Source: an uncultured Microthrixaceae bacterium (GTDB lineage Bacteria > Actinomycetota > Acidimicrobiia > Acidimicrobiales > VFJN01). Taken from it: a DNA stretch of 64,000 bases. Of this stretch, positions 18,826 to 49,834 are shown one piece after another (position 1 is the first letter of the stretch; each line of letters opens with the position of its first letter). The stretch spans positions 535,594 through 599,593 of the forward strand of contig CAVVRO010000008.1 in the NCBI GenBank assembly GCA_963750645.1. Reading direction: 5' to 3'. The position numbers were made by a program, and so were the translations under genes. A model generated the notes under the pieces. The model was not told the DNA's origin and did no database searches. It worked only from the letters and a program-made list of their open reading frames with translations.

Positions 18826-19889
<1,064 letters not shown>

Positions 19890-20215: not shown

Positions 20216-20232
20216 CGGTGCACCGTAGGCCC

Positions 20233-20279: not shown

Positions 20280-20293
20280 CGAGAGGAGCCACG

Positions 20294-27121: not shown

Positions 27122-27265
27122 TCGCTCGCTGAGCGAGCAGGGAGGAAGGCCGCCGGCGACGCGCCCGGGTCCCGAAGGGGGCGGGGCGAGGGTGCCCGAT
27201 GAGGGCCAGTGCCGATCGCACGGCTGTGGTACAAGGTTCTCGTGGCCACGCTCGCTGACGAGCCC

Positions 27266-27670
27266 ATGCCCACGCCGCCGACGGACGCGCCGTCGACCTC
27301 TGTAGGCCGCAGGTTCCTCGACTGCCTCGCGGCTCAGGACTTCGATGGCCTGGCCGCGCTCTGCCGCGACGACGTCGAGCTGCGGGCCCTGTTGCCGGGC
27401 GGGCTCAGGGAGTGGGAGGGGCCGGAGAAGGTGAGGGCTGCCTTCGTCCGCTGGTTCGATGGGACCAAGGAGTACGAGCTCACAGAGACCTCGGTCGGGG
27501 AGGTTGGTCCGCGTCTGCAGCTGCGCTGGCGCGCTCGCCTGCAGGCGAGCTGGCTCGACCCGGGATGGTTCGTGGTCGAGCAGACCGCCTACGCCGACAC
27601 GGACGAGGAGGATCGGATCCGGCACCTCTCCGTGCTGTGCTCGGGCTATCTCCCCGAGCCCGATGGCTGA
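27266..27670 (+). CDS. NTF2/SnoaL-like fold protein
   Basis: FLDCLAAQDFDGLAALCRDDVELRALLPGG is typical of SnoaL-like small proteins. ATG 27266 was preferred over 27209. The stop overlaps the P450 start. Confidence 0.55.
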   Translation: MPTPPTDAPSTSVGRRFLDCLAAQDFDGLAALCRDDVELRALLPGGLREWEGPEKVRAAFVRWFDGTKEYELTETSVGEVGPRLQLRWRARLQASWLDPGWFVVEQTAYADTDEEDRIRHLSVLCSGYLPEPDG

Positions 27671-28910
27671 GCAGACCCCGATCTGGGGCGGATGGGACCC
27701 CTCCATCCGTGACGACCCCTTCCGTCATTTCGAGGCGATGCGCTCGGACTGCCCCGTTCAGCCGGTGCGGCTCGCGGACGGGCACGACGCGTGGGTCGTC
27801 CTGGGCCACGACGCCGCCCGCCAAGCGCTCAACGACGTGCGGATCTCGAAGGACATGGTGGCGGCCCTCGAGGGTGACCCCGATGTGGTGGCGGGAGGCC
27901 TGCCAGGACCGGAGTTCTCCCGCCACATGCTCAACGTGGACCCCCCGGACCACACGCGGCTGCGCCGACTCGTGGCACGAGCCTTTCTGCCCTCCCGCGT
28001 CGCAGCCCTCGAACCCGCGATCCAAGCCGTCGCCGACGACCTCCTCGACGACCTCGAGGCCGAGGGGCCCGAGGCGGTCGTCGACCTCGTCGAGGGCTTC
28101 GCGCATCCGCTGCCCTTCAGGGTCATCTGTGAGCTGCTCGGCGTGCCGATGGAGAGCCGCCCGCAGCTCCATGACTGGTTCCGGACGCTGCTTCGCCCCT
28201 GGCTGGACAGCCCACCGCCCGAGGCTGTCCGCGCGTCGGATGGCATCGTCGGGTACCTCGCCGAGCTCGTGGCGGCCAAGCGGCAGTCTCCTGGCGACGA
28301 TCTGGTGAGCGTGCTGGTCGACGCCAGCGCCGACGAACAGCTCACGGATCAAGAGCTGCTGTCGAGCCTGTTCCAGCTGATCGTCGCCGGGCACGACACC
28401 ACCACGGCCCACATCGGGAACTCGGTCGTGGCGCTGCTCGACCACCCCGCCCAGCTCGCGACGCTCCTCGAAGATCTCGATCAGATGCCGGCCGCTGTCG
28501 AGGAGCTCCTTCGCTACTCCGCTCCTGTCCCCCACGCGACGTTCCGCATGACCACGGAACCCCTGCCGATCGGGAGCACCGACGTCCCGGATCGACAACA
28601 GATCGTGGTGTGCCTGGCCGCCGCCAATCGCGATCCAGAGGTCTATCCCGATCCGGACACCCTCGACATCGGGCGAGCGCCCCGCCCACACCTCGCCTTC
28701 GGGCACGGCATCCACTTCTGCCTGGGGGCGCCGCTGGCTCGGCTGGAGGCGAGGATCGCCTTCTCCACGTTGCTCCGACGCTTCCCGCGGCTCCGACTGA
28801 CCGGTGAGAGAAGCGACCTCAGCTGGTCGCGTGGCGACGGTCTCGTGCTCCGAGGGCTCGACGCGCTACCGGTCATCCTCGGACCTCAGTCCCGCGATGA
28901 CGTCGACTGA
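27663..28910 (+). CDS. cytochrome P450
   Basis: Heme loop FGHGIHFCLGAPLARLE, I-helix LIVAGHDTT and ExxR (VEELLRY) are present. ATG 27663 overlaps the upstream stop. Confidence 0.9.
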   Translation: MAEQTPIWGGWDPSIRDDPFRHFEAMRSDCPVQPVRLADGHDAWVVLGHDAARQALNDVRISKDMVAALEGDPDVVAGGLPGPEFSRHMLNVDPPDHTRLRRLVARAFLPSRVAALEPAIQAVADDLLDDLEAEGPEAVVDLVEGFAHPLPFRVICELLGVPMESRPQLHDWFRTLLRPWLDSPPPEAVRASDGIVGYLAELVAAKRQSPGDDLVSVLVDASADEQLTDQELLSSLFQLIVAGHDTTTAHIGNSVVALLDHPAQLATLLEDLDQMPAAVEELLRYSAPVPHATFRMTTEPLPIGSTDVPDRQQIVVCLAAANRDPEVYPDPDTLDIGRAPRPHLAFGHGIHFCLGAPLARLEARIAFSTLLRRFPRLRLTGERSDLSWSRGDGLVLRGLDALPVILGPQSRDDVD

Positions 28911-29053
28911 CGATCCAGGAACGCGCGCAGTGGCGGGGGCTCCGCCGTCGCGGGACGCGGCCCTCAGTCAGGCCATGGACCTGGGCTCCGATCCTGACCA
29001 CGTGGTCGCGGTGCTCGGTCTTCTCGGCGAGGGCAGAGCGGCCGTTGCGCTGA

Positions 29054-30221
29054 TCATGTGGCCGGGATCCACGCGCCGTGGAGCCCGTAGGGGATGCGTC
29101 GAGGGATCGCGACGGTGGCGAGCGGCGGGTGGTCGATGGCGGCGGCGTCGAGGACGATCAGGTCGGCCTCATTGCGGTTGTCGTCGTGGGAGAAGCCGAT
29201 GAGCCAGCCGCCGTCTTCGCGGTGGCGACGGGACGGGTCCGGGACGAAGCTGAGCTCGCCGGGGTGACGATCGGGGCCGAGGTCATGGGCGGTCCGGTCG
29301 CCGGTGCGAAGGTCGTGCCGGTACACCTCCGTCCCGCCGCCGGCGGCGACGGCCCACAGGTACGTGGGGACCGAGACGCGGTCACGGTTGGTGGTCCCGA
29401 ACCCTTGCGGCGTGTCGTCGAGGACGCTACGGCGGGCGCCGCCGCCGTCGAAGGTCCATCGGACCAAGGATCGGTCAGTGGCGAGAACGGCCACGTCCCG
29501 GCCGAGGTCGTACGCAGCGACGGCCTCAGTGACGCCGGCGTCGCACCAACGGGGCGGGGTCTGTCCGGTGCGGTCGACGACGCCGACGAACCCTTCGCCG
29601 AGGAGGACGATGCGGTCGCGGGTCAGGAGGAGGCCCTGCAGGGGTCCAGGGGCGTCGGGAACGGGGACGGTGATCCGGGTCTGGCTGTTCGGCGCCACGA
29701 TGTGATGCGCCGGCTCGTCGCCGTAGGAGACGAGGTGGAGCGCACCGGTGTGGGGGTCGAGCTGGGGGTGGGCGCCGATCCCACGACCCCGTCCGGCCAG
29801 GTCGACCCGGACGACGGTGGCGACGTGCTCGTCGAGCTCGTAGGCGAGGGCGCCCGAGCCCAGGGCAAGGGTCCGGCCACCGAACGTCACGACGTTGGTG
29901 GCGACGATGTCGAACGCGGCGGCGGGCGGACCGGGGATCGGGTCGGTCCCGAGATTGCGGGCGACGTTGTCGGTGGTGACCCATCGGCTGCAATACCGGA
30001 CCGCCCGGCCCTCGTGGAGCTCCACAGCGTGGACCATTCCATCGAGGCTCCGGCCAACGGGCGTCGGAGACGGGACGACGGCGTTGGGCCCGATTCGGAC
30101 ATAGCGGCCGGTCAGGGCAGGTGGGAGGGTGCCTTCGACCGTGAGGCCCGTCAGGGTCGTCTCCTCCGCGCCCGGCGCGTGGTTCCTGGTGGGGAGCTGC
30201 GGGTGCCGAGGCGGTGGGCAT
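29054..30221 (-). CDS. carotenoid-oxygenase (CCD/RPE65) family protein, short form; likely +1 frameshift near the start
   Basis: Motifs GRYVRIGPN, DGMVHAVELHEGRAVRY, AHPQLDPHTG and PYGLHGAWIP are present. The conserved frame has no ATG, GTG or TTG after the LuxR stop. ATG 30221 lies in the adjacent frame (MPTASAPAAP) next to a cccc run. Confidence 0.65.
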
Positions 30222-30306
30222 GCCCTCAGCGTCTGCGTAAGGGGCCCGCCTCCGCATCGGGAGGAACCCCTCAGATCGGCTGGATCTCCCGCCTCCGGGT
30301 CTCGGT

Positions 30307-33257
30307 TCAGGCGATCCCGAGGCGCTGGGCGACGGCGGCGGCGTCGACCCGGCTGGTGACGCCGAGCTTGCGGAGGATGTTCGACACGTGCACGCTGGCC
30401 GTCTTCTCCGAGACGAACAGCTGCTCGCCGATCTGTCGGTTGGTCTGCCCGGTGGCGACCAGCGCCAGGACTTCGGCTTCTCGGGCGGTCAGGCCGAGCC
30501 GTTCGATCGACGTGTCGTCGATGGTCACGCGGGTCGGGGCTTCGACGCTGAGCCGGGTGCGGCGTGAGATCGCCTCGGCCTGGGCCGCCACCGCGGCGGC
30601 GCCGAGGTCGATGGCCATGCGGTAGGCGGCCTGCAGCGCTCCGGCGGCAGCGGGCCGTGTCGCCGGCAGAGGCGGCAGCGTCGGCTTCGCGTAGCGTGCG
30701 CCACTGCCATCCACCACCGGTCGCCGAGGTCGCTCCCAACGCTCCACGGCTTCCGCCCAGGCGTCCGGGTCCGGGGCGGTGAGGCGGGTGAGGCTGGCCC
30801 TGGCGTGGGCGAGGTGGGCGACGATGTCGCGGGACATGGCCGGTCCCAGTGCTGTTCTGGTCGTCGACCTGGACCTGGTCGATGCGCTGCCGCAGCAGGC
30901 TGACGGTCGCGTCGACGTCGACCGGCCGGCCCGCAGCGAGGGCATCGAGTGCCTGCTCGACGGCCGCGGCGACGCTGAGCATCGCGAACCGGGCGGACCA
31001 CAGCGTGGCGGTCGCGGCGGCGTGTCTCCCAGCCGTGCTCCGCCGCCGCACCCGCCTCCGCCCAGTTGCCGAGGGCGAGGTGGACGTCGGCGACGGCAGA
31101 GTCGAGGAACGTCTGGTGGAAGCCGTCGGTGGGTCGTGCGGTGGCGTCAGCGAGGAGCTTCGTCGCCCGCTCGGTGTCGCCCCGCCTGGCCGCGAGCATG
31201 GCGCCCGCCCGCGCGACCCGGAAGATCCCGACCGGCAGGGTCTGGTCGGTCGTGTGGCGGGCCAGCGTCGCCTCGGCCTCGGACCAGCGGCCGAGCCGGA
31301 TGAGGCCTTCGGCGGCCAGGGCGTCGAGGTAGCCACCGAAGCTGTGGTCGAGCCCGGCCAGGTGCCCTTCGGCGACCGCGTCGAGGGCGGCGTTCACCGC
31401 CTCCAGGTTGCGGCCGTCGTCGAGGAGCGCGGCGCAGAAGTAGATCGCCGCGAGCGCTCGTGCTTGCGCTGTCGGGGCCGCCGCCATGGCCTCGCGGCAC
31501 AGCTCGACCGCCCTCGCGGGGTCGGCCGACGATGGCTGCGGACGAGGCCGAGCGTGCGGCGGGCCATCGCCCAGGCCAGCGGGATCGTCGGCCGGGCGTT
31601 CTCGACGAGCTCGAAGACGCGCTGCGCACCACTGCTCGGACAGCTCGTAGTGGCCGGCCATGAGCCTCGGCCTGCCCGAGTCCGGCGAACACCCCTGCCG
31701 CGTTCGGGTCGCCGTCGGTCGCCGAGGAGCGCACGCGGCCTGCTCGAACTCGGCTCGGCTCTCCTCGAGGTAGCCCGACGGCCCACAGGTAGCGGCCCAG
31801 GCGCTCGTGCCCGAACGCTTCGCCCTTGCGGAGGCGGCCCGACCTGGAAGGCTGCCTGGCGCGACCTCGCACGGCTCGCTCGTTGCCCGACGGTGGCACG
31901 TGGCGAGCTCGGCGGCCTGCCACAGCCGGTCGACCACGGTCGTCCTGCCCGGCGCTCTCGACCGGCGTCGTCCCAGCAGCTCGAACGCCCGCTCGAGATG
32001 GCGCGAACGCGGCCGCTGGGGCGATCGTCGCTGCGGCGTCGGCGGCGGCGAGCAAGGCGACGAACGCGCCTTCGCGGTCGCCGGCGCGGTCGAGGTGGAA
32101 GGCGAGCTCGCCGGCCCGGTCGGCCCGCGCCGAGCTCGGCGGTGGACTGCTGTTGGAGGGCGTCGGCGACCCGGCGATGGAGGCGGGTTCGCTGCGACGG
32201 GAGCAGGTCGGCGTAGACGACCTCGCCGATGAGGGCGTGACGGAACCGGTAGGCGTCGGTGGCGGCGTCGACCACGACCAGCTGCGCGTCGATCGCGGCG
32301 CGGACGCGCCCGTTCGATGGCCTCGTCGTCGAGGTCGACGATCGCGCGCAGCAGGTCGTGCGTCGGTCGTCACGGCCCGACGACGGCCATGGCACCGAGC
32401 GACCTGGCGGGCCTCGTCGTCGAGGCCGGCGATGTCGGCGGAGATCAGGTCGGACAGGACGGCGGGGATCGCCTCGCCGGCGACGTGGGCGGCGACGAGC
32501 TCCTCGGTGAAGAACGGGTTCCCCTGTCCCCGGGCGAGGATCTCGTCGACGAGATCATGCGGCGCGATGGTCCCGAGCAGCGCCGTCGACGCGGGCGGTC
32601 GACGTCGTCGCGGTCGAGGCCGGACAGGTGGATCCGGTGCACCGCCGGTAGGCGGGTGAGCTCGGCGAGCCGCCGCCGCTGCGACGGGTGCGCTCCGACC
32701 TCGGTCGCCCGGTAGGTGCCGACGAGCACGACCGGCTCGTCGAGCAGGTTCCGGGCCAGGAACTCGAAGAGGTCCCAGGTGACGGCGTCGGCCCAGTGGA
32801 GGTCCTCGATCCCGACGACGACGGCGCCCGTCGGCGCCGAGGTGGCCGACAACGTCGAGGATCGGCGCGAACAGCGCCGCCGGGGCCACGGTCGTCGTCT
32901 CCCCGGGGATCGTGCCCGGGGTCGAGCCAGCGGGCGAGCGGGGCGAGGCGCTCGGACTCGGAGAGCAGGTCGGGGCTGGCTGCGGCGGACCTGGCGGAGC
33001 AGGTCGGCGAGCGGCGCCAGCGGGATGACGTCACCACCGATGGGGCACGCACCGCCCGAGGTACAGGCTCACCCCCGCCCGCTCGGCGGCCTCGGCGATC
33101 AGCGTCGACTTGCCGATCCCGGCGTCGCCGCCGACCAGCAGGATCGACGGGATACCGGCCTGCGTGCGTCCGCGAAGGCCGCTCGAACAGGGCGAGCTCC
33201 TCGCTTCGTCCGACGAAGTTGGGTTCTGGTGGCGATCGGGCACGGCGATCTCATCAT
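30307..33257 (-). pseudogene. LAL-type (large ATP-binding LuxR family) regulator, multiply frameshifted
   Basis: The C-terminal LuxR HTH is intact (LTAREAEVLALVATGQTNRQIGEQLFVSEKTASVHVSNILRKLGV). Walker A LLVGGDAGIGKSTL lies near 33.1 kb. Segments VVVGIEDLHWADAVTWDLFEFLARNL, GNPFFTEELV, YRFRHALIGEVVYADLLPSQRTRLHRRVADAL and TPR-like parts are spread over all three frames from about 30.65 kb upward. Confidence 0.8.
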
Positions 33258-33402
33258 GACGCCGCCACCGCAGCCGGTGACGGGGTGCCGCACATGCGGC
33301 CCGGATCTGAGGGGTCATGCCCGATGTGCGCGGCAGGGGCCTTAGCCGAGACGGTGGACCCAGGAAGCCACCCACGCCTCCCGTAGGCACGAAGGAGCAG
33401 TC

Positions 33403-34750
33403 ATGCACGGTCGTCCCGTCCACCAAGTCCTCGGCGAGACCACGGCGAGCCACCCGAACCGGTGGCGCATCCTCGGCGTGCTCGTGCTCGCCCTGCTCGT
33501 CACCTCCATCGACCACACCATCATCAACGTCGCCCTGCCCCGGCTGGTCGGCGACCTCGGCGCCAGCTCGGCCCAGCTGCAGTGGATCGTCGCCGCCTAC
33601 ACCATCGTGTTCGCCGGGCTGCTGCTCACCGCCGGCAGCCTCGGCGACCGCTTCGGCCGCCGGCACGCCCTGCTCGCCGGCCTGGCCACGTTCCTCGGCC
33701 GGCTCCGATCGTCGCCGCCACTCGCCGGCTCGACGACGGCGCTCATCGCCGGCCGCTGCGTCATGGGCGTCGGCGGCGCGCTGATCATGCCGACGACGCT
33801 GTCGATCCTCGTCAACGTGTTCGGCGATCCCCGCGAGCGGGCCAAGGCGATCGCCGGCTGGACCGCCGCGAGCGGCGCCGGCATCGCGCTCGGACCGATC
33901 GTCGGCGGCGCGCTGATGCGCAGCTTCTCGTGGTCGTCGGTGTTCTGGATCAACGTGCCGCTGCTCGTCGCCGCGCTTCGTCGGGGCGCTGCACCTCGTC
34001 CCCGACTCCCGCGACCCGCACGCGACCCGGCTCGATCCCGATCGGCGCCTGCCTGTCGATCGCCGCGATCAGCACGCTCGTCTACGCCATCATCCAGGCA
34101 CCCGAGCAGCGGCTGGACGTCGACCGCCGTCGCTGTCAACTTCGCGGTCGGGGCCGCGATCGCGGTCGCTGTTCGTCGGCTGGGAGATGCGCCGCGACGA
34201 CCCGATGCTCGACATGCGGCTGTTCCGCAACCGCAGCTTCTCCGCCGGCAGCATCGCCCTCGCCCTGCTGTTCTTCGCCATGGCCGGCACCGTGTTCCTG
34301 CAGGCGCAGTACCTGCAGTTCGTGCTCGGCTACACCCCGCTCGCCGCCGGGTTCGCCCTCGTCCCGGCCGCGATCGGGATGCTGCTCGGCACCGGCGCCG
34401 GCGCTCACCTCGCCGCCAGGCACGGCGGGCGCATCGCCGTGACCACCGGCACGCTGATCGCCGCCGGCGGCGTCGCCGTGCAGGCCGCGCTTCATCGACG
34501 GCACGTCGTACGCCCCGACCGGTGTCGGGCTGCTGCTGTTCGGCCTCGGCGCCGGCATCGCGATGCCCGCCGCGACCGACCTGATCATGGCGACGCTTCC
34601 GCCGGCACGGGCCGGTGTCGGCTCGCCGTCAACGACACCGTCCGCGAGCTCGGCGGCGCGCTCGGCGTCGCGGTCATCGGCAGCGTCGCCGCCAGCCAGC
34701 TACGCCTCGCACGTCATCAGCGGATCGGTGCTCAGCAGTGTTCGCATCGT
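33403..34750 (+). pseudogene. MFS transporter (DHA2/EmrB-QacA type), frameshifted; 3' end approximate
   Basis: The N-terminal half is in one frame (RWRILGVLVLALLVTSIDHTIINVALPRL...LGDRFGRR...). The second half is in other frames (DMRLFRNRSFSAGSIALALLFFAMAGTVFLQAQYLQFVLGYTPLAAGFALVP and VNDTVRELGGALGVAVIGSV). Confidence 0.75.
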
Positions 34751-35770
34751 CGTGGGCGCTGCTCGCCTTCCTCACCGGCCACTGGACGGATCAGGCGCAG
34801 CGCTGGGCCGCCGTGCCGGCAACCGTGATGGCCATCGGCGCCGTGACCATCCTCGCGCGTCGCCCCGACCGGCAACGAGGTCGGATGGGTGTGGCCGCCG
34901 GCGATCCTTGCGCTCGCCGCCTGGATGACCGTCCAGTCGCGACGCGCATCTGCGGAGCCGGGCCCGCACCCTCGTCCTCTACCCGGTGTTCGCGGCGCTG
35001 GCGTTCTCCGCCCTGGGCGGCGCGTACGAGACCTACCGCGAGACCAGCGACACATCCGTCGTCGGCGATGCCCGGTCGGCTCATCGACGTCGGCGGTCAC
35101 CAGCTGCACATCAGCTGCACCGGCTCCGGCAGCCCGACCGTGGTCCTCGAGCCCGGTATGGGCGAGCCGTCACCGGTCATGGCCGGTTGGATCGCCCCGG
35201 GCGTTGCGACGACGACCAGGGTCTGCGTCTACGACCGAGCCGGACGAGGATGGAGCGAGTCGGCATCCGCCCCGCAGGACGGGGAGCAGGTCGCCACCGA
35301 CCTGCACACCCTGCTGTCACGTGCAGGCGAGCCCGGCCCGTACGTGCTCGCAGGTCACTCGGCCGGGGGGATCTACGTCCTCAACTTCGCCAAGCTCTTC
35401 CCGCAGGACGTGGCCGGGCGTGGTGCTGCTCGACTCGATGCACCCCGAGCAGTACACGCGCATGGCCTCCTGGCCCGGCTTCTACGAGATGTTCCGACGC
35501 ATGTCGGCCGTGTCGCCCTCGCTCGCACGGCTCGGGATCGGCCGCCTGATCTACGGCGGTGCGTACAGCGAGCTGCCGGCGGCCCAACGCGACCAGGAGC
35601 GCGCCTTCCTCTCGACGCCACGGCACAGCCGCAGCGTCCGAGACGAGTTCAGCAAGATCCGCATGGCGATGGGCCAGGCCGCCAAGCTGCACACGCTTGG
35701 GCGACGTTCCACTCGCCGTTCTGTTCCTACGCACGGTTCGGCACCGGAACCAGCGACGCGCCGATCCGCG
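34741..35770 (+). pseudogene. membrane-anchored alpha/beta hydrolase, frameshifted and 3'-truncated; coordinates approximate
   Basis: TM segments lie in three frames, followed by MPGRLIDVGGHQLHISCTGSGSPTVVLEPGMGE and the nucleophile elbow LAGHSAGG. VVLLDSMHPEQY...AAKLHTLG is in another frame. The sequence breaks off after LGDVPLAVL. Confidence 0.65.
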
Positions 35771-35779
35771 ACGCAGACC

Positions 35780-36298
35780 TTCGAGACACAAGCATCGGAC
35801 CTCCACGCCGTTCTTGACGCGGCAGGAGAACCGGCCCCGTACGTCGTGGTCGGCCACTCCTTCGGCGGCGCCGAAGCGGTGACGTTCACGTCGCAGTACC
35901 CCGACGACGTGGTCGGGCTCATGCTCGTCGACGCGAGCCCGGCCACGTGGCCGACCACCGTGTGCTCGGTCCCCGCCTACGAAGAGCTGTGCGCTGTCAT
36001 GCACGACTCGACGCTGGACCCGGAACGACTCGACGCGATCCCCGCGTTTGCCGACGTCGCAGCCATCAGGTCGCTGGGTGATCTCCCGATGACCGTGATG
36101 AGCGCGGCGCACCGGACCGATCCTGCTCTCATGCAGCATGAGCTCACGCGGCTCGACGCCGTCTGGGCAGCGGGTGTCAGAACCTGGGCGTCGTTGTCAC
36201 CAGCTTCCACCGTGGTCTCCGTGCAGGACACCGGCCACCACATCCAGCTCGACCAGCCGGCCCTGGTCGTCGAGGAGATCGGGAAGCTCCTGCCTTGA
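35780..36298 (+). pseudogene. alpha/beta hydrolase paralogue lacking its N-terminal ~70 residues
   Basis: It begins at ASDLHAVLDAAGEPAPYVVVGHSFGG, which parallels VATDLHTLLSRAGEPGPYVLAGHSAGG of the upstream copy. It continues in frame to LGDLPMTVMSAAH...DTGHHIQLDQP and a stop at 36298. Confidence 0.6.
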
Positions 36299-36332
36299 CG
36301 TTGATCACCGTTGAGAGCACACGGCTGACCGT

Positions 36333-36371
36333 TGGTCGGAGATCTGAACTCCCGACCTCTGCGTCCCGAAC
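36333..36371 (-). repeat. partial duplicate of the tRNA-Pro 3' half (att-like direct repeat)
   Basis: tggtcgg + agatctgaactcccgacctctgcgtcccgaac matches tRNA positions 39512-39518 and 39526-39557. There is one mismatch and a 7-nt gap. Identity stops in the anticodon loop. Confidence 0.8.
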
Positions 36372-36498
36372 ACGATCCTGGCGACGACAGGCCCGGCCAG
36401 CAGTGGCTTCGCGAATCGGGCGGGATCCTCGCGAGATCGGCTCTGCCTCAGCTGGCGTCGACGAGCTGGTGTCGCGGATAGAAGCCCTCGCCGCTGAA

Positions 36499-36987
36499 TC
36501 AAGTCTCGATGACAGACTCGTCGAACAACAGGAGCTCCTCCTCGTCTGGAGGTTGAAAGACCGTTGCCCACTGTTCGAAGTGAGCCCGTGTCATAGGCGA
36601 GGCGGTCCATTCGCCCGAGGCCTGGCGGCGCTGAGCTCGCTCGATGAGCTCCTCCAGAGACGCGTCGAGGTAGTGCAGTTCGACTCCCGCGCCCAGCGCT
36701 CGGGCTCCACGTCGCTTCTCATCCCGTTCGACCCGCGCCCAGTGGCCCCACTCCAAGATGACGCTCTGACCCTGCGCGAGGAGCTCCTGGGCAAGGGCCC
36801 ACAGCTGCCGTTCGACGCGGACTCGGAGCTCGTCGTCCCACACGTCGAGACCCAGCTCAGTCGTCCATTGATCCTTGTCCAACCTGATCGCTGGAATCTT
36901 GGGGGCGAGCCGGCGAGCGAGCGTCGTCTTGCCCGACGCTGGAAGCCCACAGATCAGCACCAGCCGCGTCGATGAGACCTCGTTCAT
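36499..36987 (-). CDS. P-loop kinase / AAA_33-like ATP-binding protein
   Basis: ATG 36987 gives MNEVSSTRLVLICGLPASGKTTLARRL, which contains a Walker A motif. The product is 162 aa. Confidence 0.7.
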   Translation of the reverse strand: MNEVSSTRLVLICGLPASGKTTLARRLAPKIPAIRLDKDQWTTELGLDVWDDELRVRVERQLWALAQELLAQGQSVILEWGHWARVERDEKRRGARALGAGVELHYLDASLEELIERAQRRQASGEWTASPMTRAHFEQWATVFQPPDEEELLLFDESVIET

Positions 36988-37167
36988 GGAGACTCTCGGT
37001 ACTCGTCCGTCACGGTCACAGCCTGCACGACCCACCTCTCCGGCCCCGGCGCAGCGCGCCGGGTTGCCATCAGGCCGGCGATAGGGGCGGTCAGCCGGGG
37101 CTGGACAATCGGCCGACGACGACGTGAACCACTTGGCACTCCTCCGGCGATGAACGGCGGCTCCCGG

Positions 37168-37632
37168 CTAGCTCAGCGGGCGCCAGAGCACAGCATCCCT
37201 CGCCAGCGACGTCTTGGGACGCGCCACCTCGTAGCCGCAACGTTCGTAGAAGCGGGCCGCTTCGCCGGTATGCAGCCAGAGCTCGGTCGCGCCTGCCTCC
37301 CGTGCGCGGTCGGCGGTCACGCCGAGGAGTCGGCGACCCAGGCCGAGGTCACGCGCTGCGCCGAGCACGTAGACGCCGGAGAGCCAGGGACCCCGGTCGG
37401 CGAACTCGACGTCGACGTCGTCGGTGCAGACACTGGCCGAGCCGACCGGTTCGTCACCCCAGCGGGCCACGAGCGTGAACGGGATCCCGGTCTCACCCGT
37501 CCGGGACCGCAGCCGCTTGCGCCACTCTTCCCGCTCCGCCTCGGTGCCGAGACTCCATTCCCGCCAGTGCCAATGGAGCACCGTTTCGAGGACGGGATCA
37601 GCAGCGCTCATTATGTCGACGTGCACCTCCAC
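37168..37632 (-). CDS. GNAT-family N-acetyltransferase
   Basis: The acetyl-CoA pocket motif GVYVLGAARDLGLGRRLL and the C-terminal ARFYERCGYE are present. Confidence 0.75.
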   Translation of the reverse strand: MEVHVDIMSAADPVLETVLHWHWREWSLGTEAEREEWRKRLRSRTGETGIPFTLVARWGDEPVGSASVCTDDVDVEFADRGPWLSGVYVLGAARDLGLGRRLLGVTADRAREAGATELWLHTGEAARFYERCGYEVARPKTSLARDAVLWRPLS

Positions 37633-38015
37633 CGCCGCATCGTCCCATGCCGGTCGAAGTCGTGACGGCTCAGTCAGCTCTCCATCAGGTCGACCAGGTA
37701 GCCGAGGAACCTCAGCTCGTCGGTCTCGCGCTCCCAGCCGTCAGCACTCGGCTTGCTCTCGACTCGGGCACTGCCAGAGACCGGGTAGAGCGCATCGCCC
37801 GTGCCGCTGCCATGGAGCACGTCGGAATCCACCGACAGTCCGGTCCGATCTCAGCTCTGCCGCCCCGGCACTGAGGCCCGGGCCGATAGCTGAGAGGTGC
37901 GCCGATAAGCCAAGCCGACCCAGCACGCCGCGAGGTCAAGTAAGCACGCCGCCACGATGATCACGTCGCCTGCACGATCGCCCGACACGGCGCGAACCGT
38001 ACTCAGAGAATCCCC

Positions 38016-38046
38016 TTGCACCTCACGCGACGTGACCTCTTACGGT
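38016..38046 (+). promoter_or_regulatory. MerR-type promoter: -35 TTGCAC, 19-nt spacer with a central palindrome, -10 TACGGT
   Basis: TTGCAC lies at 38016-38021. The 19-nt spacer contains tcacg-cga-cgtga (38023-38035). TACGGT lies at 38041-38046. The GTG start at 38054 is 7 nt after the -10 element, which implies a leaderless transcript. Confidence 0.55.
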
Positions 38047-38053
38047 TACGAGC

Positions 38054-39241
38054 GTGGCGCGGGAGTGGACGGTCGGTGAGCTGGCGCATCAAGCCAGCGT
38101 GTCGGTGAGAACACTGCACCACTACGACCAGATCGGGCTCTTGAGTCCGACGCGCAGTGCCGCTGGCCATCGCCGCTACACGGAGCCCGACGTTGCCCGC
38201 CTCACCCAAGTCGTCGCGCTACGCAGCGTCGGGCTCTCCCTCGGCGAGATCCGACGCTGTCTCGACAGCGGCGAAGCCCTGACCGCCACGCTCACCCGGC
38301 AGCTGCGCGACCTCGACCTGCGCGTCGCGCAGACGTCAGCGCTCCGGGACCGTCTCGCCACCGTCGTGGCCCAGCTCCAGAGCGGCCGCGACCTCGACAG
38401 CTACGACCTGATGGCCTTGATCGGAGACACGAAGATGATGGCAGAAGGCAAGACCAAGATCGTCGAAGAAGCGGGCAATGGTGAAGTGCTTGTCCGCAGC
38501 AAGGACGACATCACCGCCGGCGACGGAGCCAAACACGATGTGCTCGATGGCAAGGCGGCCGCATCCACGCGGACGACCTGCAACATCTTCCAGCTCCTCG
38601 AGCGCAACGGCGTGCGCACCCACTTCGTGGATCGTGTCGACGATGTCACCTTCCGGGCGCGCAACGTCGAGATGATCCCACTGGAGCTTGTCGCACGCCG
38701 GTACGCCTCCGGCAGCCTTCGAGACCGCTTCCCTGACCTGCCGGACGGCGCAGTCTTCGAAGAGCTCATGTTCGAGGTCTTCGAGAAGGACGATGCCAAT
38801 CACGACCCGCTGCTGGACTTCGACTTCGAAGCAGGCGTTCTGCGACGGCACGTGCCCAACAAGAACGCGGCAGAAGCGATCGGCCCGGACGCCAAGGCCG
38901 GCGCCCTCATCACTGAAGAACCGCTAGCAGAGAGCCGTTACGCCGACGTCTCGCCGGAGCTCATCGCACGCCTTCGAAGCCGCACCGTCTCGGCGTTCGA
39001 GGTCATCGAGGCGGCGTGGAAGCAGCACGGCGGCGTCTACATCGACTTCAAGATCGAATGCGGATTCGATCGCGAGACAGGCGACCTACTGGTGGCTGAC
39101 GTCATCGACAGCGACTCCGGTCGCTTGCGCTTCGGCGACGTCGACATGTCCAAGCAGTCGTATCGCGACGGCACGGCCACCTTGCCGGAGATCAAGAAGA
39201 AGTTCGACGAGGTTGCAGCCCTTACGGACCGATTCGTCTGA
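38054..39241 (+). CDS. MerR-family DNA-binding domain fused in frame to a SAICAR-synthetase (PurC)-like domain
   Basis: The N-terminus WTVGELAHQASVSVRTLHHYDQIGLLSPTRSAAGHRRYTEPDV plus a coiled coil spans about 125 aa. It is followed by MMAEGKTKIVEEAGNGEVLVRSKDDITAGDGAKHDVLDGKAAASTRTTCNIFQLLERNGVRTHF...DSDSGRLRF, which matches the PurC pattern. No stop separates the two parts. Confidence 0.7.
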   Translation: MAREWTVGELAHQASVSVRTLHHYDQIGLLSPTRSAAGHRRYTEPDVARLTQVVALRSVGLSLGEIRRCLDSGEALTATLTRQLRDLDLRVAQTSALRDRLATVVAQLQSGRDLDSYDLMALIGDTKMMAEGKTKIVEEAGNGEVLVRSKDDITAGDGAKHDVLDGKAAASTRTTCNIFQLLERNGVRTHFVDRVDDVTFRARNVEMIPLELVARRYASGSLRDRFPDLPDGAVFEELMFEVFEKDDANHDPLLDFDFEAGVLRRHVPNKNAAEAIGPDAKAGALITEEPLAESRYADVSPELIARLRSRTVSAFEVIEAAWKQHGGVYIDFKIECGFDRETGDLLVADVIDSDSGRLRFGDVDMSKQSYRDGTATLPEIKKKFDEVAALTDRFV

Positions 39242-39480
39242 GCCATCAGAACTCCAACACGAACGGTCGACGACGCCTCTCCACAGCGACCGCAGCTCTG
39301 CTGAGCGTCCGCGACGTATGCGGCGATCTGCGCGGCACCGCAACCGGCCGGGCGATGACCAGAACGCGCGGCCCGTCGACACGAGCAGCGCGCCACCGCT
39401 CACGTCGCGCGATGGGCGCGGGATGGAGACGAACCGCGGGATCGCCGCGGGACGCGATCGAACCGGGGACCGTCAACGAA

Positions 39481-39509
39481 GAAGCCGCAGGTGGCTGACC
39501 TGCGGCTTC
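39481..39509 (-). terminator. hairpin terminator immediately 3' of tRNA-Pro
   Basis: A perfect 11-bp stem gaagccgcagg/cctgcggcttc encloses a 7-nt loop. On the minus strand it is followed by TTCGTTGAC. It starts 2 nt after the tRNA CCA end. Confidence 0.6.
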
Positions 39510-39511
39510 CG

Positions 39512-39588
39512 TGGTCGGGTGGGGGAGATTTGAACTCCCGACCTCTGCGTCCCGAACGCAGCGCTCTGCCAAGCTGAGCCACCACCCG
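39512..39588 (-). tRNA. tRNA-Pro (anticodon CGG), CCA encoded
   Basis: Manual cloverleaf: acceptor CGGGTGG/CCACCCG, D arm GCTC-AGCTTGGCA-GAGC, anticodon arm CTGCG-TTCGGGA-CGCAG, variable loop AGGTC, T arm GGGAG-TTCAAAT-CTCCC, then A-CCA. Confidence 0.9.
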
Positions 39589-39626
39589 GAGGAGAGGTGA
39601 GGCTACCGCATCACCTCAGGGCCGCC

Positions 39627-40022
39627 CTAAGCCGGATTGGCCTCTGCGACCAGGTCGCCGTCGAGGATCGCGGTCGCCGCCTTGCGCAGCGAGAAGGCGT
39701 CGAGCGGCTTCACGACCCAGCCGTCCGCCCCCGTTCGGCGGGCCAGGAACACGTCGGCGTCGCGGTCGAGGAGCATGAGCACCGGAACCTCCGGGAGGCG
39801 GTCGGCGCCGGCCTCGTGGTGGAGGTGGAGGCAGGTGGCGATGCCACCCATGTTGCCGATCTGCAGGTCGAGCACCACGAGATCCGGGGTGGACTCGGCG
39901 ACTTCGCCGGCCACCGCCTGGCCCGATCGCACCCGCCGGATGGTGGTGGTCTCGTCGACGAGGGCGGCTTCCACCTCGGCGAACACGGCGTCGGCGTCGG
40001 TGGCGATCAGGACCTCCGTCAT
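39627..40022 (-). CDS. single-domain response regulator (CheY-like receiver)
   Basis: ATG 40022 gives MTEVLIATDADAV. The phospho-acceptor context is PDLVVLDLQIGNMGG, with a receiver-domain lysine in GWVVKPL. Confidence 0.75.
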   Translation of the reverse strand: MTEVLIATDADAVFAEVEAALVDETTTIRRVRSGQAVAGEVAESTPDLVVLDLQIGNMGGIATCLHLHHEAGADRLPEVPVLMLLDRDADVFLARRTGADGWVVKPLDAFSLRKAATAILDGDLVAEANPA

Positions 40023-40105
40023 GGAGGGGAGGCTACTCGGGCAGAAAGCCCCGGCCGCCTGGCTAGCCTTGCCGGACGGCGGAACCATCGCCCCCTGGAG
40101 GACGT

Positions 40106-40456
40106 GTGCTCGACATCGAGGTGGAGGACTCCACCGACTACACCCTGTGCCGACCGGTCGGGGAGCTGGACGCCTACACGGTCAGCCAGTTCCGAGAGGC
40201 GCTCGGGGGCTTGGCCAGCAAGCAGTACCTGCTGATCGACCTCTCCGCCGTGCCCTTCATGGACTCGGCCGGGCTCGGCGCTCTCATCGGCGGCATCCGC
40301 CGCGCCAGGGAGGCCGGCGGCGACGTCGCCGTCGCTTGCAGCCGGCCCACCCTGACGCGCCTGCTGCACACCACCGGGTTCGACCGCATCGTGTCGGTCA
40401 CCGAGACGGTCGATGACGCGGCGGCCGCGCTCGCCGACGCCCGCCCCGCCACCTAG
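40106..40456 (+). CDS. STAS-domain anti-sigma-factor antagonist
   Basis: The GTG start follows RBS ggagga. The conserved phospho-serine context is LIDLSAVPFMDSAGLGALIGG. Confidence 0.8.
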   Translation: MLDIEVEDSTDYTLCRPVGELDAYTVSQFREALGGLASKQYLLIDLSAVPFMDSAGLGALIGGIRRAREAGGDVAVACSRPTLTRLLHTTGFDRIVSVTETVDDAAAALADARPAT

Positions 40457-40589
40457 GCCGCGCCGCTCGCGAGGTCAGCGAAGTGAGGAGGCCCGAGAGT
40501 CCTGTGCCTCCGAACCAGCGCCGAGCGGGCAGGTACCGCCGACCGGCTCGCACGACGTCCGAGCCGGTCGGCAGTTGCCCGTGCGACTG

Positions 40590-43307
40590 CTACGGGGTGA
40601 TCAGGCGCCCGGCGGCGTACACCGTGGTCGATCCGCCTGGCCCTGTCGCCGTGACCCCGCAGGTCACGGTGGTTCCGACATCACCGACAGCCACGATGTA
40701 CTTGTTGGTGGTGGACGGGAGCGTCACACCGTTGCGCTGCCAGGAGTAGGCGTACGACACTGCGTTGAGCCAGGTGCCCCGGGCGCAGGTGAGCGTTCGG
40801 CCCGGGCGAGGCGTACCGGTGATGGTCGGTGCGACCGTGTTGGTGGGCGCCGACGGCACCAACCTCGGCACGGCCGTGGCCTCACCAGTGCCCATGCGGC
40901 CCGCGGCCGTCACGGTGCACGACAGCTCATGCCCACTGTCCGCCACCGTGATCGCGAAGAACTCCGACGTGGCGCCCGGCACCGGCGTGCCGTCCCGCAG
41001 CCACTGGTAGGCGTAGGTCTGCGCGTTGGTCCAGGTGCCTCGCTGACAGCGGCCGGTTCCACCGATCCCCCAGGTGCTGCCCGACTGCACGAGCATGCGA
41101 GGCAGCACCGTGTTGGCCGGTGCCGGATCCAGGGTACGGCTGCTGCTCGACGCGACCGTCTGGGACCCGGCCACGTTCTCTCCCGAGACCTGGCACGAGA
41201 GCACCGTCCCCGCGTCCTCGGTGGTCACGATGTACACGCTGTTGTAGGCCCCGGGGATGACCTGACCGTCACGCAGCCAGTCCGTGAAGAGGGACGGCGT
41301 GGGCTGTCCGGTCCACGTACCCGAGGTGCAGGTCAACGGTGTCCCGATCGAGGGGCGGTTGATGCCCGTCACCCGCGGGGCGGTCACGTTCAGGGGGGCC
41401 GTCACGGTGGGGATGTTCGCCGGCGACGACGCCGCCTGGTCCGACCCGCCGTCGTTCGTGGCGGTGACCAGACATGCGATCGTGCTCCCGGCGTCGGCAA
41501 GGGCGATCTCGTAGCTGTCGGCCGGCTCACCCACGCTGACGCCGTTGACGAGCCAGTCGAAGGCGAGCTCTGGCGACGGCTCGCCGCCCCACGTCCCCGG
41601 CGAACAGGTCACGATCTCGCCGACCGCGGCGGTGCCCTGCAGGGTCGGGGGGGTGAGGTTGAACGGCGGCGTGAAGTCCACGACGACCTCCTCCGAGATC
41701 ACGCTCGCCGTTCCGCCCTCGTTGTCCGCCGTGACGACGCAGGAGATCCCCGCCGCGACGTCCTGCGAGCGAACCGTGAAGGACGACTGGGCCTCTCCCG
41801 GGATGGTGACACCGTCGCGCAGCCACTCATAGCTGTACGCGAACGGCGCGGTACCGAGGAACCCCGACGGGGTGCAGGTGACCGTGTCGCCGACCTCGGC
41901 CGTGGCCGGTGCGATCGTGGCGGCGGTCGTCTGGTCAGCCTCCGCGGGGACGCCCAGCTCGATGACGGTCTCGAACGAGCGGGCAAGCCCCTGGAAGATC
42001 CGGCCAGCAGCGGCCAGTGCGTGGCCCCACGGGTCGACCGCCGCCGACACGAGCAGGTCGTTGTCCGACGAGACGGTGGTGACCTGGGTGGGAGCACCGA
42101 CGGCGCCGTTGGCCCGTGCGAACGCGGCGTACGCGAACCGGGAGTTGGACGCCGACACGTACTCGCTCCACACGACAGCGATGTCGTTGTTCGCGTTCGC
42201 GGCCACGACGGGCCTCAACGCGTAGTCGCCCGGACCGTCGATCTCCTCCTGCGTGAAGCCCTGACCTGGCAGCCGGCGGGCCAAGAGCATCCTCAGCGGG
42301 CTCTGGTCGTTCCATGTGGCGAACACCGTGTCCTCGGCTCCCACGGCGATCGACGGCTGGCTTCCCAGCTGGTTGCCGCTGAGGAAGTACGAGGGCGACC
42401 ACACCCCACCGGTGTTCACGATCGCGTGCATCCCGGTGCCCCGTGACCAGATGATCGCGATCGTGGACCCGGCCGCGTCGGCATCGACCATGTTGTTGGA
42501 GCCGGATCCGCTGGCGCTTCGCAGCGTGGGCGCCGTCCAGGTGCCGCCAGTCCACTCGGCGGAGAACATCACATCGGTGTTGGCCGCGGTGCGGGCGCCC
42601 CAGGCGACGACGGCGTGACCTGTGTCGTCGACGGCCGCGTTCGGCTGCATGTGCACGTCCTGCGTCGATGTGTTCCAGAGCTGGGGAACCGCGTCCCAGC
42701 CGACGCCAGGCCGATACGCGGCCGCGAGGACCCTCCACGTGGTGACGACGCCACAGCAGGAGTTGTTGGGCGCCCAGGCCAGCACGGTCGTGCCGTCGGC
42801 GCCGATGTCGACGCTCACCCGGTTCGCGTAGCCACTGGTCGGGCCAGCCGTACCGGGCGAGCTGTACTGGACGGCGGGCTCCCACGTGCCGCCGGCCGGT
42901 CGGCGCACCGCCAGCGCCGAGCCGTTGGCGTAGGCGACCGCGATGTCGCCTCCGGGGCTGACGCTCGCGTCGAGGGTGCCCGGAGAGGGCGCGATGGAGG
43001 GAATGGTCTGCACGGGACCCCAGGTGCGGCTCCCAGGCGCGCGCTCTCTCATGTGGAGCGAGTTGTTGAAGGCGACATAGCGCTCGAAGAACGCGTACGC
43101 GCGGCCCGTGTCGTCATAGCGGACGATCACGTTGGTGAGGTCGTACCCGGTCGGCGCGATGTTCTCCGATGGCCCCCAGTCGGCTGAGGCCGTCGGCGCC
43201 AATCCCGCCAGTGCCATCAGCACCACTGCCACCACGACAAGCCGTCGAGCTACCGCCCGCGATCCACCACTGCCCGTCCGCACCATCTCGACCCCCCGCG
43301 TCGTCAC
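40590..43307 (-). CDS. secreted protein: signal peptide, propeller-like repeat region and five tandem Ig-like domains
   Basis: Signal peptide RRLVVVAVVLMALAGLAPTASA. Seven recurring strands follow (DIAVAY, TTVLAW, HAVVAW, TIAIIW, TVFATW, DIAVVW and others). Residues ~461-905 (nt 40593-41927) form five 85-92-aa repeats. Each repeat has a conserved Cys pair and a W(L/Q)R(D/N)G motif, as in VGDTVTC...WLRDG...ISCVVTA. Confidence 0.8.
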   Translation of the reverse strand: MTTRGVEMVRTGSGGSRAVARRLVVVAVVLMALAGLAPTASADWGPSENIAPTGYDLTNVIVRYDDTGRAYAFFERYVAFNNSLHMRERAPGSRTWGPVQTIPSIAPSPGTLDASVSPGGDIAVAYANGSALAVRRPAGGTWEPAVQYSSPGTAGPTSGYANRVSVDIGADGTTVLAWAPNNSCCGVVTTWRVLAAAYRPGVGWDAVPQLWNTSTQDVHMQPNAAVDDTGHAVVAWGARTAANTDVMFSAEWTGGTWTAPTLRSASGSGSNNMVDADAAGSTIAIIWSRGTGMHAIVNTGGVWSPSYFLSGNQLGSQPSIAVGAEDTVFATWNDQSPLRMLLARRLPGQGFTQEEIDGPGDYALRPVVAANANNDIAVVWSEYVSASNSRFAYAAFARANGAVGAPTQVTTVSSDNDLLVSAAVDPWGHALAAAGRIFQGLARSFETVIELGVPAEADQTTAATIAPATAEVGDTVTCTPSGFLGTAPFAYSYEWLRDGVTIPGEAQSSFTVRSQDVAAGISCVVTADNEGGTASVISEEVVVDFTPPFNLTPPTLQGTAAVGEIVTCSPGTWGGEPSPELAFDWLVNGVSVGEPADSYEIALADAGSTIACLVTATNDGGSDQAASSPANIPTVTAPLNVTAPRVTGINRPSIGTPLTCTSGTWTGQPTPSLFTDWLRDGQVIPGAYNSVYIVTTEDAGTVLSCQVSGENVAGSQTVASSSSRTLDPAPANTVLPRMLVQSGSTWGIGGTGRCQRGTWTNAQTYAYQWLRDGTPVPGATSEFFAITVADSGHELSCTVTAAGRMGTGEATAVPRLVPSAPTNTVAPTITGTPRPGRTLTCARGTWLNAVSYAYSWQRNGVTLPSTTNKYIVAVGDVGTTVTCGVTATGPGGSTTVYAAGRLITP

Positions 43308-43413
43308 CAGTGTGCAGACCGTGCCCGAGTCGCCGTTACGACGGCGTTACACACCGGGTAGCCTCGCTGCGGCTGGGGCTGGGGAGGGCAGGTACGAGGG
43401 CGGGCAGGGTGAG

Positions 43414-46332: not shown

Positions 46333-46340
46333 GCCCGGCG

Positions 46341-48394: not shown

Positions 48395-48399
48395 GACCG

Positions 48400-49641: not shown

Positions 49642-49834
49642 TCGGCGATATCCCTTTGTTGGGATTTGCGTGTTCCCCCGAGGCTCCATGCAACCCAACG
49701 CGGCCCGTGACACCGGAGCGATAGGGCTGTGACCTGGGAGTGTTCGCGATCACAAGCAGCTTGCTCGCGATCGATTGACCCTTGTTTCCCTCAAAGGACC
49801 GCCTGTAGGGTCGCCGCCGAAAGGGGGATGCCAC

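Follow-up and report, generated by a model that had tools for sequence, protein, structure and literature searches.

A displaced 3' fragment of tRNA-Pro(CGG) in an uncultured soil actinobacterium, probably the scar of a lost integrative element

Introduction

Islands inserted into tRNA genes are defined in the Islander literature by the very signature described here, and integrase-less remnants as well as tandem arrays at actinobacterial tRNA genes, Pro-tRNA included, are documented (PMC4383910; PMC2440964). The window, i.e., the whole stretch of 64 kb which was analysed, contains an intact tRNA gene followed downstream by a 3' fragment of that gene in the same orientation, and the fragment runs from a sublocation in the anticodon loop to the tRNA 3' end, as in Islander tDNA islands (PMC4383910). 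The locus differs from those islands in that the interval lacks an integrase gene, and it would therefore fail the Islander filter. In addition, an interval of 3.1 kb is very small, damage has occurred in the fragment, and import of the enclosed genes is not demonstrable.

[quoted passage not shown] The likeness is partial and consists of the att scar in the window and of a tyrosine integrase relic abutting att in two relatives, L001 (OY970242.1) and L083 (ERZ25039597); decayed remnants and tandem insertions are also known for this class. Unlike AICEs, the window has no Rep, Tra (FtsK-like), Kor or Xis genes, its host belongs to the class Acidimicrobiia and not to Streptomyces or relatives, and the relic in L001 and L083 is not assigned as pSAM2-like.

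Flexible, i.e., strain-variable, genomic islands beside tRNA genes have been described in marine and soil bacterial population genomics. Our locus resembles them in having conserved anchors which enclose different genes in each strain compared. The tRNA-Pro scar is an ordinary new example of a common and well-understood genome scar; its value is mainly for annotation and population genomics, and no new mechanism is revealed.

The tRNA-Pro gene and its displaced 3' fragment

The tRNA-Pro(CGG) gene was located at 39512..39588 on the minus strand by both ARAGORN and Rfam (RF00005, 64 bits), in agreement with an earlier sequence-only reading of this DNA. The partial copy which that reading had reported was seen again by direct sequence reading: positions 36333-36339 (tggtcgg) equal 39512-39518, and positions 36340-36371 equal 39526-39557 except for one C/T mismatch, leaving a gap of 7 nt. 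A repeat search returned a 34-nt match with 97% identity (36338-36371 versus 39524-39557). The fragment (36333..36371, minus strand) lies 3.1 kb downstream of the tRNA gene in the same orientation and corresponds to tRNA positions 31-77; read on the tRNA strand it extends from positions 31/32 in the anticodon loop to the CCA end, and the 7 nt missing from it belong to the T-stem/acceptor 3' strand. Identity starts at G31/T32, the canonical anticodon-loop sublocation and the place where it had been said to end. We designate the fragment as an attR-type scar and the 3' part of the intact gene, positions 31-77 (39512-39558, minus strand), as the attL-side core copy.

Neither Rfam nor ARAGORN called a tRNA in 36333-36371. 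The 32-nt core occurs in exactly two copies in 64 kb, even when 3 mismatches are tolerated, and no match to it appeared in any of 100 dinucleotide shuffles. Additional copies had been proposed as a sign of tandem islands; in the 64-kb window only the two known copies turned up. The stretch 36.0-40.2 kb showed no consensus sites resembling promoters or terminators. The tRNA-Pro(CGG) sequence is 100% identical in the relatives L083 to L086 and differs by one base in L001.

Integrase relics in relatives and a phage with the same attP core

In L001 the tRNA and a short spacer are followed by a C-terminal fragment of a Phage_integrase domain (40.9 bits, cut-off 27.1) and by an N-terminal fragment. 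L083, whose STAS protein is identical to that of the window and whose DNA is about 90% identical to it, has 412 nt in common with L001 counted from the tRNA start, the integrase 3' end included. In the window the spacer adjoining the tRNA 3' end (39397..39511, minus strand, about 116 nt, with a hairpin at 39481-39509) is 83% identical to L001 and 91% identical to L083, where its homologue is the segment between the tRNA and the 3' end of the integrase pseudogene. Homology of the window to both relatives breaks at 39397, and the near-identical strain L085 (ERZ25039524) diverges from both at that point too. Beyond it, between the spacer and the MerR-PurC segment, stands a filler of 134 nt (39263..39396, no strand given) with no Pfam match in any frame; in L001 and L083 this position is taken by integrase coding sequence. 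From this arrangement the spacer appears to be the element-derived (P') arm, and these roughly 116 nt would be the only DNA traceable to the original element. We also considered the spacer as native chromosomal DNA. This is less likely, as integrase coding sequence follows the spacer without a break in L001 and L083, and since the classical model puts native downstream DNA beyond the distal fragment.

The survey of integrases beside the tRNA was made with an integrase HMM iterated from L078 and was restricted to this integrase type; among 80 loci only L001 matched. A homologue search with the N-terminal fragment of the L001 integrase gave 5 fragments and no intact element, and an integrase together with a distal tRNA fragment was seen in no relative compared. 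We infer, by an indirect link, that the integrase family of these relics made the scar in the window.

The attachment site itself has an exact counterpart in a temperate phage. The IMG/VR contig IMGVR_UViG_3300012167_000015 (L101/L102) carries a 47/47 match to tRNA positions 31-77 without a full tRNA, and an intact tyrosine integrase gene (59.8 bits) begins 110 nt downstream of this attP core, on the same strand as the core. Amidase and tail-type genes lie on one side, and HTH repressor, ParB and RusA genes on the other. The left boundary of the phage core, G31, is also that of the fragment in the window. The arms of the phage site are, however, unrelated to those flanking the two core copies in the window, the phage integrase belongs to another subfamily than the L001 relic (phmmer E 2e-7, catalytic end only), and the window contains no phage genes. 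Through the exact attP match at least one uncultivated temperate phage is tied to the tRNA site, which amounts to a host prediction for that phage. Displaced fragments recur in other Acidimicrobiales: L048 has a 49-nt tRNA-Pro fragment (positions 25-73) 2.65 kb downstream, with a TraI-like helicase fragment and no integrase in the interval, and in L049 the distance to the fragment, here of 46 nt (positions 30-75), is 4.3 kb. The tRNA-Pro(CGG) gene beside the STAS/response-regulator pair is a recurrent integration and gene-turnover hotspot across the order.

The earlier proposal of an integrase-mediated insertion into tRNA-Pro, now an integrase-less remnant, gains from the relics in relatives, the matching phage attP, the recurrent fragments and the lack of the 3.1 kb in relatives. 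In our judgement the repeat is probably the displaced, attR-type fragment left by such an insertion into tRNA-Pro(CGG), followed by loss of the integrase and later remodelling of the interval, the element being now immobile. Points against it are the lack of a clean empty site in the collections searched, the indirect link to the relic integrase, the unrelated arms of the phage site, the native look of the genes now in the interval, a zone of low GC which passes the distal repeat, and a distal junction backed by one assembly. The order of events is inferred as follows. The element would have carried a tyrosine integrase and an attP core identical to tRNA positions 31-77. By recombination within the core, from the anticodon loop to the 3' end, the tRNA would have been restored with DNA of the element while its own 3' half was displaced downstream, with the integrase gene originally about 120 nt past the tRNA 3' end and pointing toward the tRNA. 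In the lineage of the window the integrase gene was presumably deleted completely, with a breakpoint at 39397, and the DNA between the core copies would have been reshaped by later deletions and by gain of lineage-typical genes. The locus would now form one end of a hotspot which varies from strain to strain and has the conserved triad of STAS, response regulator and tRNA-Pro as its anchor.

Gene content and composition of the interval

The interval between the core copies, hereafter the islet, holds the three genes which the sequence-only reading had named, as seen with Pfam: an AAA_33 P-loop kinase (36499..36987, minus strand, 91 bits), a GNAT acetyltransferase (37168..37632, minus strand, Acetyltransf_1, 52.6 bits) and a fusion of a MerR HTH with a SAICAR-synthetase-like domain (MerR+SAICAR_synt, CDS 38054-39241, plus strand). 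No integrase or excisionase domain was found with Pfam in any frame of the islet, alternative ORFs included, again as had been reported, and a phmmer search of the six-frame window with four integrase queries gave no tyrosine-integrase similarity (best E 0.1). Pfam detected no domains in the islet other than those of the kinase, GNAT and MerR-PurC genes, thus no RepSA/RepAM replication, FtsK-like Tra or Kor modules, and no phage structural, lysis or immunity genes. At the nucleotide level the islet had no match among 50,697 phage records; compared with plasmids and phages, its DNA gave weak matches to the kinase gene at most, or nothing.

The islet had been described as richer in A/T than its flanks. 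GC is lower (0.665 versus 0.70-0.72 elsewhere), and so is GC3 (0.76-0.83 in the islet genes; the mean of the window is 0.87, with an sd of 0.056). A compositional shift does exist, though a modest one, and the zone of low GC continues past the repeat for about 0.8 kb, into the hydrolase gene.

Two of the genes have a traceable background. The MerR-PurC segment (37978..39262, plus strand) consists of the CDS with 76 nt upstream and 21 nt downstream; these gene-sized 1285 bp are common to an unrelated locus in relatives, with nucleotide identities of 97% to L081/L082 and 94% to L092/L093 and no other shared DNA. At that conserved locus the usual neighbours are a CMD gene and an ASCH gene. Repeats or hairpins were looked for at the segment ends and none were seen. 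The kinase family occurs order-wide in Acidimicrobiales, with more than 100 clusters at 81-92% amino acid identity; in L099 and L100 the gene stands in different contexts, and nucleotide homology is confined to the CDS. The present islet genes look native to the order rather than imported.

These observations give nearly even odds to a reading in which the scar and the present content are unrelated. In that reading the element would be gone except for the cores and the 116-nt arm, no cargo would survive, and the kinase, GNAT and MerR-PurC genes would have come later by ordinary recombination in a hotspot between conserved anchors. It is favoured by the tight bounds of the copied segment around its gene, by the varied contexts of the kinase, and by the break in homology to L001 and L083, the relatives with relics, at 116 nt past the tRNA. 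It is also favoured by L085, which keeps the islet genes and lacks the distal repeat: positions 27678-36600 are absent from this strain (blastn), a difference of 8.9 kb with the breakpoint inside the kinase gene. Such a difference between near-identical strains indicates fast turnover at the locus. Against it, integrative elements can carry host-like cargo, and among the loci compared the GNAT gene was found in L085 and nowhere else.

Strain variability around the islet

The islet is the proximal end of a hypervariable region of 12-19 kb, which reaches 27146 in comparison with the close strains L083/L084 and about 20215 in comparison with L069/L015/L009 of other genera. Its distal part (27146..36332, no strand given), delimited by blastn comparisons, Pfam and a frame plot, is absent from L083 and L084 (blastn) and contains genes for SnoaL, a P450, an RPE65-type oxygenase, a frameshifted LuxR/AAA regulator, a frameshifted MFS transporter and alpha/beta hydrolases. 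The block beyond the distal repeat had been called frameshift-laden, and rightly so, as the best coding frame in the frame plot changes every 100-300 nt in 30.3-35.5 kb. With the STAS gene, response regulator and tRNA-Pro as conserved anchors on one side and DUF7144/PAP2 on the other, every strain compared has a different gene set between them, as in strain-variable (flexible) genomic islands; this comparison covers a handful of strains. The stretch from the tRNA spacer to the DUF7144 gene measures 12.2 kb in the window, 5.8 kb in L083 and 2.5 kb in L084 and consists of unrelated DNA. Each close relative has its own content on the downstream side of the tRNA. The islet genes were found within 10 kb of the tRNA in 0 of 80 species-level relatives, and they are also absent beside the tRNA in L083, L084 and L086; all of these have other DNA there.

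The view of the 3.1 kb as one discrete foreign insert which keeps its original cargo gains no support, given the copied MerR-PurC segment, the order-wide kinase and the extent of variability to 27.1 and 20.2 kb. The proposed comparison with related genomes gave a divided answer. The 3.1 kb are indeed absent in relatives, but a tRNA followed directly by the hydrolase gene did not appear. An empty site would join the full tRNA-Pro directly to ACGGTCAGCCGTGTGC; pattern and hydrolase-based scans detected no clean case (tRNA, then sequence beyond 36333) in any collection searched. The sequence CGACCAACGGTCAGCCGTGTGC, expected at the B' junction or an empty site, had 0 matches in a metagenome scan, and a scan with the hydrolase gave 5 short loci with 57-76% identity, none of them with a tRNA.

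The reach of the variable region beyond the repeat speaks for another reading, a tandem array, in which the fragment is the shared boundary of two successive insertions into the same tRNA. The older of the two islands would be 27.1-36.3 kb, and the 3.1 kb would be what is left of the newer, which entered the regenerated tRNA. Tandem integration which leaves an internal att copy is known for AICEs (PMC2440964) and in Islander (PMC4383910). Yet no second fragment in the correct orientation was found at 27.1 or 20.2 kb (blastn-short, E<=10), 20-36 kb contains no integrase or other mobility gene, and the 27.1-36.3 kb block consists of ordinary metabolic and regulatory genes with a GC of 0.72, equal to the core. 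We consider the tandem array possible and rather doubtful; it would refine the single-insertion scar and not replace it. An improbable further idea is that in this Microthrixaceae-like lineage the tRNA-Pro site is not just a dead scar but a landing pad which persists. Single genes typical of the lineage, each with its own promoter, would be copied into it from the genome or the population, examples being the 1.3-kb MerR-PurC segment, the kinase and the GNAT gene. They have no recognisable mobility gene of their own, and trans-acting integrases would perhaps work on the retained core copies.

Since the sole near-identical strain, L085, lacks 27678-36600, the distal junction is backed by this assembly alone. 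A mis-joined distal junction, or a mis-joined 27.7-36.6 kb block, in a long-read metagenome assembly would account for this, and the frame changes nearby and many split genes in related assemblies of the same sample series point the same way. We hold such an artefact very unlikely, however, because a random mis-join would not put an att fragment beside its own tRNA, and because the kinase gene of the window runs unbroken and at full length through 36601, where it is truncated in L085, which makes L085 the derived form. Least likely of all is a decayed local tRNA duplication (pseudo-tRNA) or chance match without an integrase: the damage to the fragment (the 7-nt deletion and one mismatch) and the lack of an integrase in the window would fit, but the shuffles exclude chance, the fragment ends in the anticodon loop and precisely at the tRNA 3' end, as does the core of a real phage attP, and integrase relics occupy the homologous site in relatives.

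As a minor observation, the fragment at 36333-36371 sits between two convergent genes.

The tRNA-Pro Gene and Its Displaced Copy

ARAGORN called a single tRNA gene in the window, a minus-strand tRNA-Pro(CGG) (39512-39588). The call was backed by Rfam with 64 bits, and Rfam found no RNA family other than this tRNA between 26 and 47 kb. The sequence-only reading had described a partial copy of the gene 3.1 kb downstream, and this observation was confirmed by reading the sequence, by repeat search and by the ARAGORN and Rfam calls. Positions 39512-39518 are repeated exactly at 36333-36339, and positions 39526-39557 at 36340-36371 with one mismatch, with a gap of 7 nt between the two matching stretches; the repeat search scored the match as 34 nt with 97% identity. 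The 32-nt core occurs at only two sites in the window with up to three mismatches allowed, and was matched in 0 of 100 shuffled sequences. Read on the tRNA strand, the displaced copy lies in the gene's own orientation and begins in the anticodon loop at position 31/32, extending through the terminal CCA; on the 3' strand of the T-stem/acceptor, 7 nt are missing. The distal junction, at the displaced fragment, is attested in this assembly only.

Conserved Neighborhood and Integrase Evidence

Homologues of the response regulator adjoining the tRNA were found in 80 species-level genomes (best 79% identical), nearly all of them MAGs of uncultured Acidimicrobiales (Acidimicrobiia), several labelled Microthrixaceae. 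Of the 80 loci, 74 contained tRNA-Pro(CGG), in nearly every case directly 3' of the regulator and on the same strand, and a STAS gene stood on the regulator's other side in 67. The triad of STAS, regulator and tRNA-Pro is therefore an old and stable anchor. The kinase, GNAT and MerR-PurC genes enclosed in the window, and the hydrolase gene beyond the displaced fragment, were found within 10 kb in none of the 80 loci. The comparison with related genomes proposed in the earlier reading thus held for the absence of the islet genes near the tRNA; an empty site was found neither by a junction-pattern scan nor by a hydrolase-based scan. The contigs of six relatives (L011, L016, L012, L023, L066, and L068) stop at tRNA-Pro or at most about 250 nt after it, as would fit assembly breaks in DNA that is repeated or varies among strains.

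The closest species-level relative is L001. Downstream of its tRNA, a spacer homologous to window 39397-39511 (83% identity) leads into the remains of a tyrosine integrase gene, which points toward the tRNA and survives as two fragments. The C-terminal fragment scored 40.9 bits against Pfam Phage_integrase (cut-off 27.1), and the sole database relatives of the N-terminal fragment were short integrase-type fragments. The locus of a closer strain, L083, aligned with L001 over 412 nt from the tRNA start, reaching into the integrase 3' end, while the window and its near-identical relative L085 depart from this alignment at 39397. Most simply read, the ancestor shared by these loci had tRNA, spacer, and integrase in this order, and the whole integrase was later lost on the way to the window. 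This suits the proposed remnant without integrase, since none is present here, while L001 and L083 keep relics at the homologous site.

Scanning of IMG/VR with the tRNA 3' end matched one contig (IMGVR_UViG_3300012167_000015; L101/L102), identical to tRNA positions 31-77 at 47 of 47 bases. The left edge of this core is the same base where the window fragment starts. An intact tyrosine integrase (59.8 bits) starts 110 nt downstream of the core; amidase and tail-like genes lie upstream, and HTH repressor, ParB, and RusA genes downstream. Judged from this gene order, the contig is laid out as a temperate phage whose attP adjoins int. Just 5' of the core (about 9800-9845 in L102, about 930-975 in L101), CGGGTGGTGG is identical to the tRNA 5' acceptor strand and is followed by a shortened D-arm-like stretch. 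The phage arm is thus a degenerate near-complete tRNA, and ARAGORN called no tRNA there.

The Enclosed Genes and Their Origin

Pfam agreed with the accessory genes named earlier, assigning the three enclosed genes to an AAA_33 kinase (36499-36987, minus strand), a GNAT acetyltransferase (37168-37632, minus strand), and a fusion of MerR-HTH with a SAICAR-synthetase-like domain (MerR-PurC; 38054-39241, plus strand). The reported lack of integrase and excisionase was borne out as well: neither domain was present by Pfam in any annotated or alternative ORF, and four integrase queries had no match anywhere in the window when it was translated in all six frames. The expected compositional shift proved real, with a GC of 0.665 in the islet vs 0.70-0.72 elsewhere and a GC3 of 0.76-0.83 in its genes vs a mean of 0.87, but it is small and does not stop at the distal repeat, the low-GC dip running about 0.8 kb beyond it. 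Farther on, at 30300-35550, the best coding frame switches every 100-300 nt through a LuxR/AAA-type regulator, an MFS transporter, and the first alpha/beta hydrolase, while the flanking genes on either side hold one frame. Either genuine pseudogenes or local indel errors of long-read sequencing could account for these changes.

The only part of the enclosed DNA that seems traceable to an integrated element is the 116-nt spacer. MerR-PurC has hundreds of family members in Acidimicrobiales, with 71-97% amino acid identity. Its neighborhood is conserved in four long contigs, where it stands between an upstream CMD gene and downstream ASCH/FMN_dh genes and has no tRNA close by. The window shares with these contigs exactly 37978-39262 (97% and 94% nucleotide identity) and nothing more, a segment made up of the gene plus 76 nt on its upstream side and about 21 nt on its downstream side; no repeats were seen at the segment's ends. 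The kinase family is likewise order-wide (more than 100 clusters, 81-92% amino acid identity), its homologues standing in differing contexts with nucleotide homology limited to the coding region. No trace of the GNAT was found outside the window and L085. The islet had no similarity to phage records, and its matches to plasmid records were weak and covered the kinase gene only. The content therefore reads as lineage-typical genes and not as cargo from a distant donor, and it looks like genes recruited to, or kept in, a hotspot.

Two long contigs, L082 (42 kb; 1-74) and L092 (774 kb; 1-148), start at most 150 nt upstream of MerR-PurC, where the window homology begins, as would be expected if the gene were doubled in those genomes and broke the assembly. 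Hundreds of Acidimicrobiales proteins (P0001-P0120) combine the SAICAR-synthetase-like domain with a MerR HTH. Among close relatives (85-89% across the PurC-like part), the N-terminus differs (380-aa forms) or a fusion to sigma-70 is seen (P0116). Judged from these forms, the PurC-like part may be a ligand-sensing module swapped among DNA-binding domains.

Extent and Turnover of the Variable DNA

Much closer relatives (L083-L085) were obtained by exact look-up of the STAS protein. In L083 (about 90% nucleotide identity to the window), homology stops at 39397 and returns at 27145, at the DUF7144/PAP2 genes, with 5.8 kb of unrelated DNA between; L084 (about 84%) shows the same pattern with 2.5 kb. 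L085 is near-identical (proteins 99-100% barring frameshifts) and collinear with 36601-50080, without 27678-36600, a segment which takes in the distal tRNA fragment and the final 33 kinase codons. L085 is the derived form, since its kinase is truncated and that of the window is full length. A 118-nt piece in L085 (3504-3622) matches window 27561-27677, the end of a SnoaL gene, and is fused straight to 36601 inside the kinase gene; the DNA left of it is unrelated to the window. The difference is a compound rearrangement and no simple deletion. By tblastx, gene conservation on the downstream side of the tRNA picks up again at about 20215 of the window in other genera (L069, L015, and L009). From these homology breaks, the islet is thus the tRNA-proximal end of a larger hypervariable region, 12 kb vs close strains and 19 kb vs other genera, with recent turnover. 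The idea of a discrete 3.1-kb foreign islet was too simple, as its DNA is part of this region and its genes look lineage-typical.

A second variable spot of 5.9 kb (40457-46340) was observed on the triad's other side, between the STAS and ArsA/CbiA-type ATPase genes. It contains a 905-aa Ig-repeat protein and an ORF of about 1071 aa, and was missing in L083, L084, L086, and L087, present in L085 and partial in L090.

Proposed Mechanism and Known Systems

An integrase scar at tRNA-Pro remains well supported by the canonical repeat boundaries, the integrase relics in relatives, the phage with the same core beside its integrase, and the strain-level variability. Recombination by a tyrosine integrase between the tRNA gene and an attP core equal to tRNA positions 31-77 would have rebuilt the gene from element DNA and displaced its old 3' half. 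The arm that now adjoins the tRNA, with its hairpin, would come from the element. Later, deletion may have removed the integrase together with most of the element, and other genes may have moved in; the loss of 7 nt would be decay of a site no longer selected. The scar may be the work of an integrase of the relic family or of an L102-like phage; the arms of the window do not match those of L102.

The scar is of a known kind, here in a new example from a poorly studied order. Islander defines tDNA islands by a regenerated target and a displaced fragment (PMC4383910), and the window has the intact tRNA gene and the displaced fragment in the same orientation, with a core that begins in the anticodon loop, but has no integrase gene. 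Integrative elements of actinomycetes integrate at tRNA 3' ends (Pro-tRNA for pSAM2), have att sites adjacent to the integrase, and occur as remnants and tandem insertions (PMC2440964); the replication and transfer modules of AICEs are all absent from the window locus.

Comparable traces downstream of the same tRNA in several other genomes also count as evidence that an integrase acted at this site. L048 has a 49-nt tRNA-Pro fragment (positions 25-73) 2.65 kb downstream, enclosing a TraI-like helicase fragment and no integrase, and L049 a 46-nt fragment (positions 30-75) 4.3 kb downstream. L078 has a complete but frameshifted integrase 1.2 kb downstream of tRNA-Pro. In L061 (10635-10854), three 23-nt copies of the tRNA-Pro end, from the T-loop to the end, lie about 100 nt apart directly 3' of the gene, suggesting an att array of the T-loop type, which differs from the anticodon-loop type of the window. 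Past the integrase relic of L001, lower-GC DNA (0.62-0.68) extends over 11540-20325, with ORFs at 11540-13003, 18167-19258, and 19366-20325 that are putative IS transposases, judged from their translations.
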